A stretch of DNA of 55,878 bases from IMG/VR virus record IMGVR_UViG_2839610755_000009; one strand, written 5' to 3'. The stretch's first letter is position 1, and every line of letters begins with the position of its first letter. The stretch comes from a virus. Taxonomy: Duplodnaviria > Heunggongvirae > Uroviricota > Caudoviricetes. Of the stretch, positions 43,314 to 47,829 are shown piece after piece. The notes under the pieces were generated by a model. That model saw only the letters and a program-made list of their open reading frames with translations. It did not search any database and was not told the DNA's origin. The position numbers were made by a program, and so were the translations under genes.

Positions 43314-43730
43314 GTGTCTCAACCACTTTCGGAAATATTGACATGGGATGATGAACAATGGGAGGTATTTGTCCATGATTGGCTTATTGTCTGTAAATCA
43401 GATGATTACCCGTGGAGCGAACGTTTGGGAGGAGCTGGAGATAAAGGTAGAGACGTTGTTGGATATAAATCGGATCCTAACGTAGAAGGTTATTCTTGGG
43501 ATAATTATCAATGCAAACTGTACAAAAAAAGTTTAGGGTTCTCTGATGTTGTAGTTGAGTTTGGAAAACTTATCTATTTTACTCTGAATGGTGATTATCC
43601 CATCCCTCAGAAGTACTTTTTTGTGGCACCCTATGATTTATCTACTACATTTTCTAATTTATTGAAAAATAAAAACGAGCTTAAAAAAGCAGTCCTTGAT
43701 TCATGGGATTCAGCAATTTCAAAAAAATAA
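43314..43730 (+). CDS. cargo ORF A: PD-(D/E)xK-like nuclease domain (candidate effector N-terminus)
   Basis: 138 aa, GTG start 7 nt after AAGGAG; GGAGDKGRDVVGY ... YQCKLY resembles Mrr/NERD-type motif. Confidence 0.5.
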   Translation: MSQPLSEILTWDDEQWEVFVHDWLIVCKSDDYPWSERLGGAGDKGRDVVGYKSDPNVEGYSWDNYQCKLYKKSLGFSDVVVEFGKLIYFTLNGDYPIPQKYFFVAPYDLSTTFSNLLKNKNELKKAVLDSWDSAISKK

Positions 43731-44320
43731 CTAAAAAGATTGATATTCCATTAGATGATGAAATAAAAAAATATATTGAGGATTTTGATTTTAGTATTTT
43801 TTACTCTCTACCCTTATCATTGATTTTAAATGATATTGCAAATACACACCTTTATTTTAAGTACTTTAACGAGCTGTATGTCGTGAGAATCCCTCCAAAT
43901 GAAATTCCAACATACAATTCAAAAAAAGAGTCTGTATATGTTAATGCACGGCTTCAAGCCTATTCAGAGCATGGAAATAAAACTTATAGTTCTTTCTTAG
44001 AGCTTGATGATCCATACAGACGACACTTTAATAATAGTAGAAATGATTTTTATTTTGCATCTTCGCTTGAGGTTTTTGTCCGCGAAGTATTTAAAGATGA
44101 TGTATTCAAAGCATTGAAATGTTACATTTCATCTTCAATTGAACCCGTCTTTTATGAAGACCATAATTATGCATTTATTAGGTGTAATGCAGTCTTGAAG
44201 CAGGCTGTTCTGACACCAATTGCACATTCAGTACTATCAAAAATATGTGAAGCAAATGATAAAAAAGGAATATGCCATCATTTGGTTAATGATGGTGAAG
44301 TAATTTGGACGGTGAGATAA
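43703..44320 (+). CDS. cargo ORF B: probable C-terminal continuation of ORF A
   Basis: 205-aa ORF overlapping A by 28 nt, no SD; joins A by -1 shift at A7 tract. Confidence 0.45.
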   Translation: MGFSNFKKITKKIDIPLDDEIKKYIEDFDFSIFYSLPLSLILNDIANTHLYFKYFNELYVVRIPPNEIPTYNSKKESVYVNARLQAYSEHGNKTYSSFLELDDPYRRHFNNSRNDFYFASSLEVFVREVFKDDVFKALKCYISSSIEPVFYEDHNYAFIRCNAVLKQAVLTPIAHSVLSKICEANDKKGICHHLVNDGEVIWTVR

Positions 44321-44778
44321 TGGTTAGAATTTATAATTCAAGTTTAGAAGTGGCATGTCGAATGGCGAAAGTGCTCGTCGCTATTTATCCTTCTTCATTA
44401 AGCCTTGAACGGCTTATTTGTTTTGATTTTATTTTAGTAAATCTTAAGGATTTTTTACCTGAAGAGATTAGTCTTCATCCTCCAATACCCCGTAGAGATG
44501 CTCAGTTAGCCCTAAAACGAGAGATTGTTTTAGAATCATTGGCTTTGTTGCAAGGCTATGAACTAGCCTCAAAAATTTATACACATCGTGGTTTTGTATA
44601 TAAAGCTTCTGAAAAAACATATGCATTTACAAATTCTCTACATAATGAATATGTTGCGCAGATGGAGCATAATATAAATTTGGTGGTTAAGTTATATAGT
44701 GATATTCCTGATGAGCAGTTGCAATCAATTATAAAAAATAAAATTGGCAAATATGATATGGAATTTAATTATGAATGA
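44320..44778 (+). CDS. cargo ORF C: small helical protein (candidate middle component)
   Basis: 152 aa from ATG overlapping upstream stop (TAATG). Confidence 0.5.
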   Translation: MVRIYNSSLEVACRMAKVLVAIYPSSLSLERLICFDFILVNLKDFLPEEISLHPPIPRRDAQLALKREIVLESLALLQGYELASKIYTHRGFVYKASEKTYAFTNSLHNEYVAQMEHNINLVVKLYSDIPDEQLQSIIKNKIGKYDMEFNYE

Positions 44779-45403
44779 CAATTTTTTTACGTTCAGAAAA
44801 ATAAAGGTAACCGGATTCAATAAATTAGATGCTATAATTGAATTTGGTTCTAAATTGACTATTTTATATGGTGGTTCTGACTCTGGAAAAACATACATAT
44901 ATTATTTGATTCGATATTTATTAGGGAGTGAAAAACTAAAAAATAAAGATATCGATCATGCTCAAGGTTATGATTTAGCCTATCTGGAATTTAATTTTCA
45001 AGGTAGGGTAATGACAATTGAGAGGTCTCTTCAGGATAGCGCCCATTACAGATTATATGATTCGAGCATTGAAAATGTTAGTGAAGCTAATCTGTTGATG
45101 GTTTTTTCCAAAAGTGCTTCGTCTAAAAAGAGTTTTTCATCATACTTTTATGGTAGGTTGAATTTCAAAGAGGCTAAAGTAAGAACAAACTTAAGTAATA
45201 CTCTTCATAAATTTAATCTTAATAATGTTTTTGAATTTTTTTGTATTGATGAATTAAGAGTGTTAACTGAGAAGTCGTTAATTCTTTCTGATATTCCTAG
45301 CGAGGAGACAAAAAGAAAGTCTGAATTTAAATTCCTTTTAACTCAGAGAGATGATACTAACTCCTTAGCAGAAAAACCAAATAAAAAAGCAAGATATTTT
45401 TAA
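44771..45403 (+). CDS. cargo ORF D: ABC/SMC-like ATPase N-terminal head (Walker A)
   Basis: P-loop ILYGGSDSGKTYIY; ATGAATGA overlap with ORF C. Confidence 0.55.
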   Translation: MNDNFFTFRKIKVTGFNKLDAIIEFGSKLTILYGGSDSGKTYIYYLIRYLLGSEKLKNKDIDHAQGYDLAYLEFNFQGRVMTIERSLQDSAHYRLYDSSIENVSEANLLMVFSKSASSKKSFSSYFYGRLNFKEAKVRTNLSNTLHKFNLNNVFEFFCIDELRVLTEKSLILSDIPSEETKRKSEFKFLLTQRDDTNSLAEKPNKKARYF

Positions 45404-45433
45404 AAAAATCAAATTGCAAATATTTATGAGGAA

Positions 45434-46024
45434 TTGAAAGCGCAATTAATTTATCCTGAATATGATCAAGTCATTGTTTCAAGAGAACTTGAGAAAGTAG
45501 AGCAAGATATTGAATCATCGAAAGATATATTGAAAGGTATTGTTGATGCACTTGATGATAAGAAGCAATTATTAAAAGAGTTAAGTGATGAATTATATTC
45601 AATCAGTGACAGGGAAAAATACTTATCATTACTCATTGAAAGATTTAGTCTTCTTAAAGACCAATACTTTATAGATCTACAAAGAATAGATGTTGTATCA
45701 CAGGCGAATTTCTATTTAAATAATTTTGCAGATATTTATTGTGAGTTCTGTAATACACCGCAAAAAAAAGAAAATGAAATATCATATGATGATTGTTTTT
45801 TGTCGTGTAATGCAGAAAAATTGAAAATCAAAAGCCAGCTGAAAGGATTAATTGAATCAATCGGATCTAATGTTCGCGAACATGAATTAATTATGTTAAG
45901 AAAAAATGATGTTAATGAAATTTATCAATCAGAAAAAAGTGATTTTAAGACGTTAGAAGATAAAAATATAAAACAATACATTCATCTCTTGAATCACTTT
46001 ATGAATATAAAGACAATCTTTTAA
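45434..46024 (+). CDS. cargo ORF E: coiled-coil segment of ATPase (in frame with D after a single TAA)
   Basis: 196-aa heptad-rich ORF without ATG start; same frame as D; CEFC...CFLSC cysteine cluster. Confidence 0.45.
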   Translation: MKAQLIYPEYDQVIVSRELEKVEQDIESSKDILKGIVDALDDKKQLLKELSDELYSISDREKYLSLLIERFSLLKDQYFIDLQRIDVVSQANFYLNNFADIYCEFCNTPQKKENEISYDDCFLSCNAEKLKIKSQLKGLIESIGSNVREHELIMLRKNDVNEIYQSEKSDFKTLEDKNIKQYIHLLNHFMNIKTIF

Positions 46025-46590
46025 TGGATCACACAAAACATAGCATTCTATCTTCATTACAAGATAAAGAAGATGATGTTGACGAACTTAAATACTCCGC
46101 CGAGGACTTTGACTCCTTAACAGTAGCTGATTTGTATGATATAGAAATAGCGATGCAAGACTTTTTGAATGATATAAATTTTGAAAATTCTAAAGATAAC
46201 AAAGTGCGATTTGACGAAGATACATATGACTTTAATATCAATGGGAAACGCCGAGGAATGTTTGGTAAAGGTACCCGTGCAGTAATGCATGCTATATTTA
46301 CCATTTGCTTTGCGGAATTTTTATCAAGAAAAGGGAATCCATTCATTGGATTTGTTGTGCTTGATAGTCCATTAGTGACGCACTTTGATAAAGATAGAGG
46401 GGGTTCTCTATCGGATGTTAATAGCGTCAGTCTCAGTGATTCATTTTATCACGCATTAATCAAAAGGGACTATAATTTCCAGATTGTAATTCTTGAGAAT
46501 AAAGGTCCGACGTTCCAAATAAAAATTAATGATGCAAATAAAATCCATAACTTAAATAAGAATGGAAGCTCTGGTTTTTATCCTGTTTAA
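46024..46590 (+). CDS. cargo ORF F: ABC/SMC-like ATPase C-terminal head (Walker B-like)
   Basis: 188 aa; FIGFVVLDSPL hydrophobic-strand-plus-acidic motif; TAATG junction with E. Confidence 0.5.
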   Translation: MDHTKHSILSSLQDKEDDVDELKYSAEDFDSLTVADLYDIEIAMQDFLNDINFENSKDNKVRFDEDTYDFNINGKRRGMFGKGTRAVMHAIFTICFAEFLSRKGNPFIGFVVLDSPLVTHFDKDRGGSLSDVNSVSLSDSFYHALIKRDYNFQIVILENKGPTFQIKINDANKIHNLNKNGSSGFYPV

Positions 46591-46999
46591 TACATTAAAA
46601 ATATAACTGCTAATTGGGGTGCTCGAAATTATATTTCGTTTCGAGCGCTCAGTTCATTTCTAAATAATTTGCAAAATTATTTTGGGTACTTTCGCCTCTA
46701 CACTTCCTTCGGGTGGTTCCACAATAATGGATCTCACCGGCGTTTGATATTTTATAATCTAACCCCTTAGCGCGCGCAGCCCCCCACGCCTGCTCGCTTC
46801 GCTTAACAGACTGGTTTTCATGCATTCCGCAAATCGTCTCAGAAGCCACCACACAAGGGCTTTCGCGTCAAAAATGGTGCATGAGAATCATGCGTTTTCA
46901 TGCGCTATAGACATGCACTCATGCGCTCTCAGGCCAGCCAGGGAAAAGGCGTAAAAAATCCCAGTACTGGACCGGGATTACGTGGGCTTTTTTTGCTAA

Positions 47000-47272
47000 T
47001 CAGACAGGAATTTGCTGACGGCTTGACAGCTTTGACGCGGAGCCATAGCGATTGAGAGTTTGCTGTTGTTTTTCCGGCATTTGTGCTTTCTCTGATTCCT
47101 GTTCATTGCGCCGGGGCTTCATGATTATCGTATCCACACTTTCCAGTGCGGTAAATGTGTAGGAACATTCAAGATTCTGGCACTGATACCATGAGCGTTT
47201 AACCGATGGTGCTTCATAGGCGGAGGTTCTGGCGTGTGCCGTCGTACCGCATTCGGGACATTTAAGTGCCAT
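47000..47272 (-). CDS. Ogr/Delta-type zinc-finger late-gene activator
   Basis: 90 aa; CPECGTTAHARTS...YQCQNLECSYTF matches Ogr/Delta zinc finger. Confidence 0.85.
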   Translation of the reverse strand: MALKCPECGTTAHARTSAYEAPSVKRSWYQCQNLECSYTFTALESVDTIIMKPRRNEQESEKAQMPEKQQQTLNRYGSASKLSSRQQIPV

Positions 47273-47277
47273 TAATA

Positions 47278-47829
47278 TTACTCCTGCATGCCGTTAATGT
47301 AATCCAGACGTTGCTGAAAGCGCAGTTGTTGTGCAGGGGTGTAAGAGCTCTGGCAATCACGAACCATCATGGGGTCAGGCATCACACCGGATTCATCCAG
47401 AATCATACGATAATCCCCGGCAATTTCAGGCGGTGTTATTGCCAGCTGGCGAACCAGAGCATTGCGTAATATACGGGACGCAACGTCAACCCCTCCGCGC
47501 CCCTTCAGGAACGGAGCCAGTGCAGATGTCAGGGCTGCTCCATTCGCCTGCATAAAATTGCTGAGAGCGTCTTCTGTGCAGGCCTCCATCAGTTGATGCT
47601 GCGAGTAAATGCATTCGCGCGCAGCACAGTTAATTTGCCATTTCAGCACATCCAGATGTTCCCGCTGTAATTCGAGCTGTCGAGCATAATCTGCTGGTTT
47701 TTCCATGGCAGTGAGGAGTGATTCTATCTGTTGTTCAACGGCTTTTCGGCTCTCACTATGTCCAGCCCACAGAATACGGGCATTTCTAAAACTGATAAGC
47801 GCTTGGTCTGGAGTGACTCGGGCCATCAT
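47278..47829 (-). CDS. Psu-like (polarity suppression) protein
   Basis: 183 aa, P4 psu position and size. Confidence 0.65.
   Translation of the reverse strand: MMARVTPDQALISFRNARILWAGHSESRKAVEQQIESLLTAMEKPADYARQLELQREHLDVLKWQINCAARECIYSQHQLMEACTEDALSNFMQANGAALTSALAPFLKGRGGVDVASRILRNALVRQLAITPPEIAGDYRMILDESGVMPDPMMVRDCQSSYTPAQQLRFQQRLDYINGMQE

Follow-up and report, generated by a model that had tools for sequence, protein, structure and literature searches.

The two open reading frames that meet at a run of seven A residues (43721..43727, plus strand) in the analysed stretch of 55,878 nucleotides (hereafter the window) are the halves of one broken gene, lmuA, the effector gene of a Lamassu-type cassette. 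The tract very probably results from replication slippage from A8 to A7 that was fixed in the common ancestor of the O55 and O157 lineages of E. coli, as part of the pseudogenisation of the whole operon. The lesion is unremarkable, a homopolymer frameshift within an already known family of defence systems, and it points to ordinary gene decay and not to programmed frameshifting, because an intact version of the cassette survives in Salmonella. The genomes compared show directly the lesions, how these are distributed over the phylogeny, and that an intact allele exists.

The split lmuA gene and its operon

The first frame, ORF A (43314..43730, plus strand; ECs_0290, 138 aa), has a GTG start codon with AAGGAG just 5' of it and forms the 5' fragment of lmuA, with a predicted and complete Mrr-type PD-(D/E)xK nuclease domain according to alignment, Pfam, PADLOC and AlphaFold/Foldseek. 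It ends in ...SAISKK at a TAA (43728..43730, plus strand) lying directly after the seven A residues, exactly where the original prediction had placed them. In the frame of ORF A the tract has the phase A_AAA_AAA, with AAA codons at 43722-43724 and 43725-43727, and thus presents a slippery heptamer of the X_XXY_YYZ type in the 0-frame phase. The second frame, ORF B, opens at 43700 and is shifted by -1 with respect to ORF A, as had been proposed. It contains the 3' fragment of lmuA (43727..44320, plus strand), which encodes residues 139-335, i.e. the linker and the CTD6 domain (Pfam PF20282, alignment). RefSeq annotates it as ECs_0291 (43703-44320, plus strand), with an in-frame ATG at 43703 as the start and an overlap of 28 nt with ORF A, and the 20 bases 5' of this ATG (aaaaaagcagtccttgattc) hold no Shine-Dalgarno-like motif, in agreement with the earlier reading. 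The gene is therefore split at 43721-43730 into pieces of 138 aa and 205 aa. An extra A in the tract, i.e. the A8 of the intact allele, abolishes the premature stop made by the deletion and gives an uninterrupted protein reading ...SAISKKITKKIDIPLDDE...; its length is 335 aa, close to the 330 aa or so that had been expected for a continuous effector.

Since A7 runs are common in this cassette (four in lmuA alone, at a cassette G+C of 33%), such a run means little by itself. Judged from translated alignment, what does exceed chance, unlike the A7 run itself, is homology that abuts exactly at the tract: residues 3-138 of the Xenorhabdus LmuA match frame A and residues 138-335 match frame B (tblastn, E = 3.6e-139). 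The homology to one protein thus changes frame at the tract, which bears out the idea that the two ORFs are halves of a single effector.

The cassette has the gene order lmuA-lmuC-lmuB, with PADLOC matches to LmuA, LmuC and LmuB in sequence, so that an effector, a middle component and an SMC-like ABC ATPase are encoded by three genes in order. Pfam assigns ORF B to PF20282 CTD6 (E = 3e-28) and the next gene to PF20288 MC2 (E = 6e-30), and the third gene codes for an SMC/AAA_23-type ATPase (Pfam AAA_23/SMC_N). The Mrr_cat domain of Pfam is matched by 5 of 18 family members, and ORF A retains the GxGDxGxD and QCK motifs that are invariant in the family alignment. On the basis of the PADLOC matches, the Mrr_cat matches and these motifs, we assign the cassette by sequence to the short, Mrr-type Lamassu (ABC-3C) operons. 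LmuA is not a single polypeptide in the window; once one A is restored, the 335-aa protein matches the PADLOC LmuA model PDLC03852 end to end (residues 3-333 covered, E = 2e-87). NCBIfam has no model for any of the proteins, and a profile search of PDB sequences returned chance-level matches only.

A structure model was made for the orthologue from Xenorhabdus (P0001, 67% identical to the restored LmuA), whose orthologous operon encodes proteins of 335, 152 and 604 aa. This AlphaFold model (pLDDT 92.4) has the fold expected of LmuA, with a predicted PD-(D/E)xK nuclease followed by a helical CTD, and its top Foldseek matches in the PDB are the LmuA chains 9nxx, 9ny1 and 9uxh (E = 8e-5, probability 1.0), with further matches to the nuclease domains of Cap4, MspJI and FokI. 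Differences in domain orientation keep the TM-scores of the model low (~0.3). In the model, residue 138, after which LmuA is broken, closely follows helix 120-135 and belongs to the beginning of an extended interdomain linker (136-148), so that the break would separate two functional halves, the nuclease domain and the CTD. In solved Lamassu complexes the N-terminal domain of LmuA is the nuclease, while its CTD docks on LmuB2-LmuC and drives the activating tetramerisation (PMC12663957).

The second gene, lmuC (44320..44778, plus strand), encodes an ABC-3C middle component 2 of 152 aa and appears intact (PF20288; PADLOC LmuC, E = 2.5e-36). The third, lmuB (44771..46590, plus strand), is a pseudogene of an SMC-like ABC ATPase, matched by the PADLOC LmuB model PDLC03863 and broken into three ORFs (44771-45403, 45434-46024 and 46024-46590) that tile this model at positions 3-199, 231-412 and 428-608 of 610. 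The Walker A (GSDSGKT) and Walker B (VVLDS) motifs are present, yet no uninterrupted LmuB of ~600 aa is encoded. The first break is an in-frame TAA nonsense codon specific to the O157:H7 lineage (45401..45403, plus strand); the same codon is TTA (Leu) in Xenorhabdus, in three O55:H7 strains and in the E. coli contig L094, and the O157 state is found over the 99 bases around it in ~297 of 309 records. The second is a 1-nt deletion reducing an A6 run to A5 (45962..45966, plus strand), common to O55:H7 and O157:H7; the run is A6 in the contig L101 described below. A tblastn comparison with Xenorhabdus bracketed this -1 frame change to 45964-46021. An A4 run at 45970-45973, also considered as the site of the lmuB frameshift, was wrong, the site being the A5 run. 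In RefSeq, lmuB is annotated as a pseudogene in Sakai (ECs_0293), whereas EDL933 and most other genomes list each of its three pieces as a protein.

LmuA homologues and the intact allele

LmuA is encoded by one unbroken ORF in 81 of 81 homologous loci (80 from reference genomes and the Xenorhabdus locus), and nearly all of the best 120 database matches are single proteins of 320-380 aa. The original prediction had named two separate proteins in homologous cassettes as the outcome that would speak against a joined effector, and this outcome was not seen. With the A restored, the junction reads WDSAISKKIT and so agrees with the conserved motif WD.SISKKIT, and the alignment runs unbroken across it. 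By sequence comparison the A-run is not conserved among the LmuA homologues: in 75 of the 81 loci the A-runs around the junction reach at most 2-5 bases, and the corresponding codons in Xenorhabdus are AGT AAA ATA. A search of the same loci for a conserved shift site or a two-ORF layout found no two-ORF locus and, in most, no A-run.

Two homologues show features of their own. The intact lmuA of Chryseobacterium hispalense carries an in-frame A9 run (GAA AAA AAA ATT, EKKIT) exactly at the position of the tract, suggesting that the KKI motif repeatedly makes a slippage-prone run in low-GC hosts. A 211-aa LmuA homologue (P0016, 60% identical), encoded on a 33-kb contig, ends inside a conserved region (...ESVYVG) and may be another, independently broken lmuA in a different organism.

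An exact-sequence look-up found the A8-restored LmuA of the majority allele (P0123, 335 aa) on 434 contigs, the species of which were judged from the named cluster members and from L101. This protein and the majority O157 sequence with A8 restored do not differ (100% identity). For the run at the junction (43721), length variants were found on 434 contigs for A8, 15 for A6 and one for A9, as compared with five contigs for A8 and 24 for A6 at the control run at 43524, and two for A8 and five for A6 at the control run at 43921. The junction A8 lies ~100-fold above this background of length noise and is therefore a real allele. Moreover, partial proteins of Salmonella enterica (P0129 and P0134; serovar Brandenburg and others) cross the junction unbroken (...SAISKKITKKIDI...).

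The partner gene is also found intact. A query made of the window lmuB with the substitutions of L101, TTA at 45401 and an extra A at 45962-45966 matches exactly a 606-aa LmuB (P0172, 'MULTISPECIES: hypothetical protein [Salmonella]') present on 292 contigs, the longest of 4.68 Mb; ten of the 11 candidate intact-LmuB sequences looked up were absent from the collection. P0172 differs from the repaired window LmuB by five amino-acid substitutions, and Klebsiella aerogenes has a 606-aa LmuB relative (P0181). Relative to the intact cassette of S. enterica, the window thus has A7 instead of A8 in lmuA, A5 instead of A6 at 45962-45966 and TAA instead of TTA at 45401-45403. Because the cassette is intact elsewhere, the copy in O55:H7 and O157:H7 is best seen as a decayed derivative, for which the Salmonella allele offers a ready positive control.

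The contig L101 (IMGVR_UViG_2923272612_000005), from a viral collection, carries on one molecule both the A8 of lmuA, with the junction GCAATTTC-A8-TAACT, and A6 at the equivalent of 45962-45966. It shares the integrase side with the window and is unrelated beyond ~46830, past the operon terminator, which suggests that the cassette has moved between elements or satellite backbones. Its quality is poor, as seen from many homopolymer indels across the cassette. A metagenome scan for the A8 pattern returned nothing.

Distribution and decay in E. coli

Among 5,426 complete E. coli genomes, the 3.3-kb cassette was found at 99% identity or more in 310 records (309 genomes), and the cassette-bearing entries inspected all belong to O157:H7, O157 or O55:H7. 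The window itself is from O157:H7. In Sakai the cassette lies within 'prophage Sp2, P4-like phage' (Sp2/CP-933I), with the integrase on one side and delta/psu/sid on the other, and the core genes of this satellite are annotated as intact. The int-psu interval is a defence hotspot of P4-like satellites (Rousset et al., PMC9122126); in the window it is limited on the left by the P4-type integrase gene intS (42129..43310, plus strand) and on the right by delta (ogr-like) and psu (47000..47829, minus strand). A terminator-like hairpin with a 13-bp stem (46617..46650, plus strand) closes the operon. No tRNA gene adjoining int was found in 41500-42300. Upstream of the satellite, at the boundary of the Sp1 and Sp2 prophages, lie a gene coding for an AraC-family regulator (40414-41166) and, on the minus strand, part of a truncated IS3-family transposase (41208-41573), which is listed in Sakai as a partial ISEc48.

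A search of a phage collection for the cassette gave no match. The sole match in a plasmid collection, NZ_CP044147.1 (E. coli O157 AR-0428, a 46.9-kb record labelled plasmid), contains the same prophage region, which is chromosomal, with 99.8% identity and four fewer bases across 3.3 kb. The record probably represents a piece of chromosome, misassembled or unplaced, in which homopolymer errors occur. The P4-hotspot system reported from the O157:H7 strain FRIK944, a two-gene cytidine deaminase system, is a different cassette (Rousset et al. 2022, supplement), and showed no activity when assayed (Rousset et al. 2022).

All 309 E. coli records compared (308 genomes), those of O55:H7 included, have the same 71 bases around the tract, so the tract represents neither a sequencing error nor phase variation. 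The exact sequences of ORF A and ORF B are each found on at least 1000 contigs, and a look-up of the window LmuC returned only neighbourhoods with a split lmuA. The O55:H7 strains share the A7 of lmuA and the lmuB frameshift at 45962-45966 with O157:H7. Their lmuB lacks the nonsense codon and carries a further deletion, from A6 to A5 at 45933-45938, that is peculiar to them. It follows from this distribution that the two shared lesions came first and were followed by independent hits in each lineage. Of the recent inactivating deletion put forward among the possible explanations in the original prediction, the deletion is thus strongly supported, but not its recency, since it is older than the split of O55:H7 and O157:H7.

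One E. coli contig, L094 (GCA_002460865.1, NJVH01000015.1), carries only the two shared lesions, and its LmuB is in two pieces of 417 and 188 aa without the TAA; the 417-aa piece of this type is present on 127 contigs. L094 looks ancestral-like, as its integrase directly follows proBA-like genes with no Sp1 material upstream.

Further lesions are confined to single strains. For example, NE 1092-2 has lost a further nucleotide of ORF A, at the equivalent of 43357, strain 4276 has IS3/IS5 elements in place of int and the 5' part of lmuA, and F3113 has lost nearly the whole cassette. Private decay is also seen in four other loci (L092, L093, L097 and L099), with an IS insertion in lmuB or extra breaks in its middle piece. 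Between DEC5E (O55:H7) and the window, 11 of 12 coding substitutions are nonsynonymous, against a neutral expectation of 0.80; the probability of this count is 2e-6 were only 25% expected, a figure assumed to stand for purifying selection. The pattern fits the neutral expectation, i.e. accumulation without constraint. The substitution density of the cassette showed no significant difference from that of its flanks (Fisher P = 0.10 and 0.32). A G at 43950 is private to the window and replaces the CTG (Leu) of Sakai, EDL933 and O55:H7 with CGG (Arg), changing a residue that is a nearly invariant Leu in the LmuA family (L213R). Among the listed genomes, only F1273 and TX 376-2 are 100% identical to the window.

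We infer slippage as the mutational mechanism, and also the loss of function. One A would have been lost from the A8 run of lmuA by replication slippage in the ancestor shared by O55:H7 and O157:H7, which would have cut LmuA after residue 138 and parted the nuclease domain (ORF A) from the CTD (ORF B). The system affected would be a putative anti-phage and anti-plasmid short Lamassu of the Mrr type in the int-psu hotspot of Sp2. The operon would since have been dead and decaying, with the shared A6-to-A5 frameshift of lmuB, then the lineage-specific hits and the unconstrained substitutions. Two points count against this decay: the break in the model coincides with the beginning of the linker, where a functional split would also fall, and lmuC and the nuclease motifs are still intact. 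Some full-length LmuA may still be made, because a correctly phased heptamer precedes the stop and -1 shifts at C-AAA-AAA are known in E. coli under overexpression (PMC1851650). On A_AAA_AAA, -1 slippage by a minor share of the ribosomes may yield the ancestral protein, which would be adventitious and inconsequential without LmuB.

The loss of Lamassu in the ancestor of O55:H7 and O157:H7 might have been adaptive and not neutral, with residual -1 slippage yielding traces of full-length LmuA, but we regard this combination as improbable. Bearing on it, the two lesions predate the O55/O157 split, and the later decay looks neutral. If the loss was adaptive, it would have lifted a barrier to replicating foreign DNA and so have opened the way for the lineage to gather, later on, Stx prophages, other lambdoid prophages and pO157.

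Alternative explanations and related systems

A phase-variable switch, in which reversible changes of the DNA between A7 and A8 toggle the effector within O157:H7 populations, appears very improbable. Homopolymer runs are hypermutable, the O157-type protein encoded with A8 occurs on hundreds of contigs and A6 and A9 variants exist; however, tract length is not polymorphic among close isolates, all 309 E. coli records having A7 and none A8. Moreover, the named members with A8 are Salmonella and occur together with an intact Salmonella LmuB, the junction A6 (15 contigs) is no commoner than the variants of the control runs (2-24 contigs), and reactivating lmuA would be pointless given the broken lmuB.

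Programmed -1 frameshifting or transcriptional slippage, which the original prediction had listed first among its explanations, would normally make the full-length effector, perhaps alongside a nuclease-only product in a fixed proportion. The heptamer A_AAA_AAA is correctly phased and a stop codon directly follows it, the -1 product is the ancestral protein, and C-AAA-AAA does shift in E. coli (PMC1851650). Nevertheless, neither two ORFs nor a conserved A-run is seen in any of the 81 homologous loci, the closest intact allele, whose protein is 100% identical, simply has A8, and no E. coli copy examined has an unbroken lmuB. Nor was a stimulator of frameshifting found: no GGAGG-like or Shine-Dalgarno-like motif lies upstream of the tract, and the downstream RNA (43728-43800) folds at -5.6 kcal/mol (z = +0.56), with 146 of 200 shuffles folding equally well, which indicates no stimulatory structure. 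As for transcriptional slippage, it becomes significant in bacteria at runs of ~9 A/T or more (8 in some species), selection against it also appears at ~9 nt (PMC1088944), and A7 lies below this length. The proposal is thus unsupported, and we consider it highly improbable.

Known shift sites give the same contrast. Like those of E. coli dnaX and of the IS3/IS1 type, the heptamer of the window is made of lysine codons read by tRNA-Lys; unlike them, it has no stimulator, no conservation and no sign that two products are needed, and it arose through damage to an A8 run. It also resembles the poly(A) runs of frameshifted genes that slippage partly rescues (Baranov et al. 2005, PMC1088944; Citrobacter rodentium tssM, PMC4256274), where slippage would likewise recreate the native protein after a 1-nt deletion in an A-run. 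However, the runs in those cases are of ~9 or more and the partners are intact, whereas the run here is A7 and the partner gene is dead.

A functional split, in which ORF A and ORF B (from its own ATG at 43703) are two subunits, or ORF B and LmuC form an effector-less or decoy Lamassu, is extremely improbable. The break falls at the domain linker in the model of the Xenorhabdus orthologue, ORF B does have an ATG with a 28-nt overlap with ORF A, and some short Lamassu, forming a clade, lack an effector domain (PMC12663957). On the other hand, that clade has an untruncated LmuB whereas lmuB is broken here in two places, no Shine-Dalgarno motif precedes the ATG, and the substitution pattern is neutral. 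Lesions also keep accruing, in ORF A as well, as seen in NE 1092-2 and in strain 4276, which has lost ORF A. Finally, a homopolymer error of sequencing or assembly in a genome that truly has A8, as also put forward initially, has practically no probability left: many homopolymer indels do occur in L101 and in the AR-0428 'plasmid' record, but the tract is the same in 309 of 309 independently sequenced records, Sakai and EDL933 included, and both ORFs recur on at least 1000 contigs each.

With the tract read as an A8-to-A7 deletion in a decaying operon, the cassette can be compared with the short (type II) Lamassu or DdmABC systems, e.g. Vc-Cap4 of V. cholerae (PMC12663957; 9nxx, 9ny1, 9ny5). 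The order lmuA-lmuC-lmuB is the same. As in short Lamassu and the ABC-3C families of Pfam (CTD6, MC2), LmuA combines a predicted PD-(D/E)xK nuclease with a helical CTD and LmuC is of the MC2 type; as in short Lamassu, LmuB is an SMC-like ATPase of ~606 aa with the Walker motifs given above. Unlike the V. cholerae Lamassu, the effector is Mrr-type and not Cap4, with 7-10% identity to the solved LmuA chains. With a split lmuA and a three-piece lmuB, the locus of the window would be a Lamassu by descent and not a working one.

RefSeq presents ECs_0290 and ECs_0291 as two proteins, labelled 'hypothetical protein' and 'ABC-three component system protein'; they would be better annotated, in the O157:H7 and O55:H7 genomes of RefSeq, as one frameshifted lmuA pseudogene. 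Automated tools may score the dead cassette as a Lamassu system, and a conference abstract reports that PADLOC calls Lamassu in O157:H7 (PMC12050774), which may concern another locus. The cassette provides a clear example of a defence system decaying in place within the hotspot of a P4 satellite, and its stepwise lesions can be used as lineage markers. According to a 2026 survey, defence pseudogenes are rare in such elements, making up <1% of P4 pseudogenes (PMC13586616).
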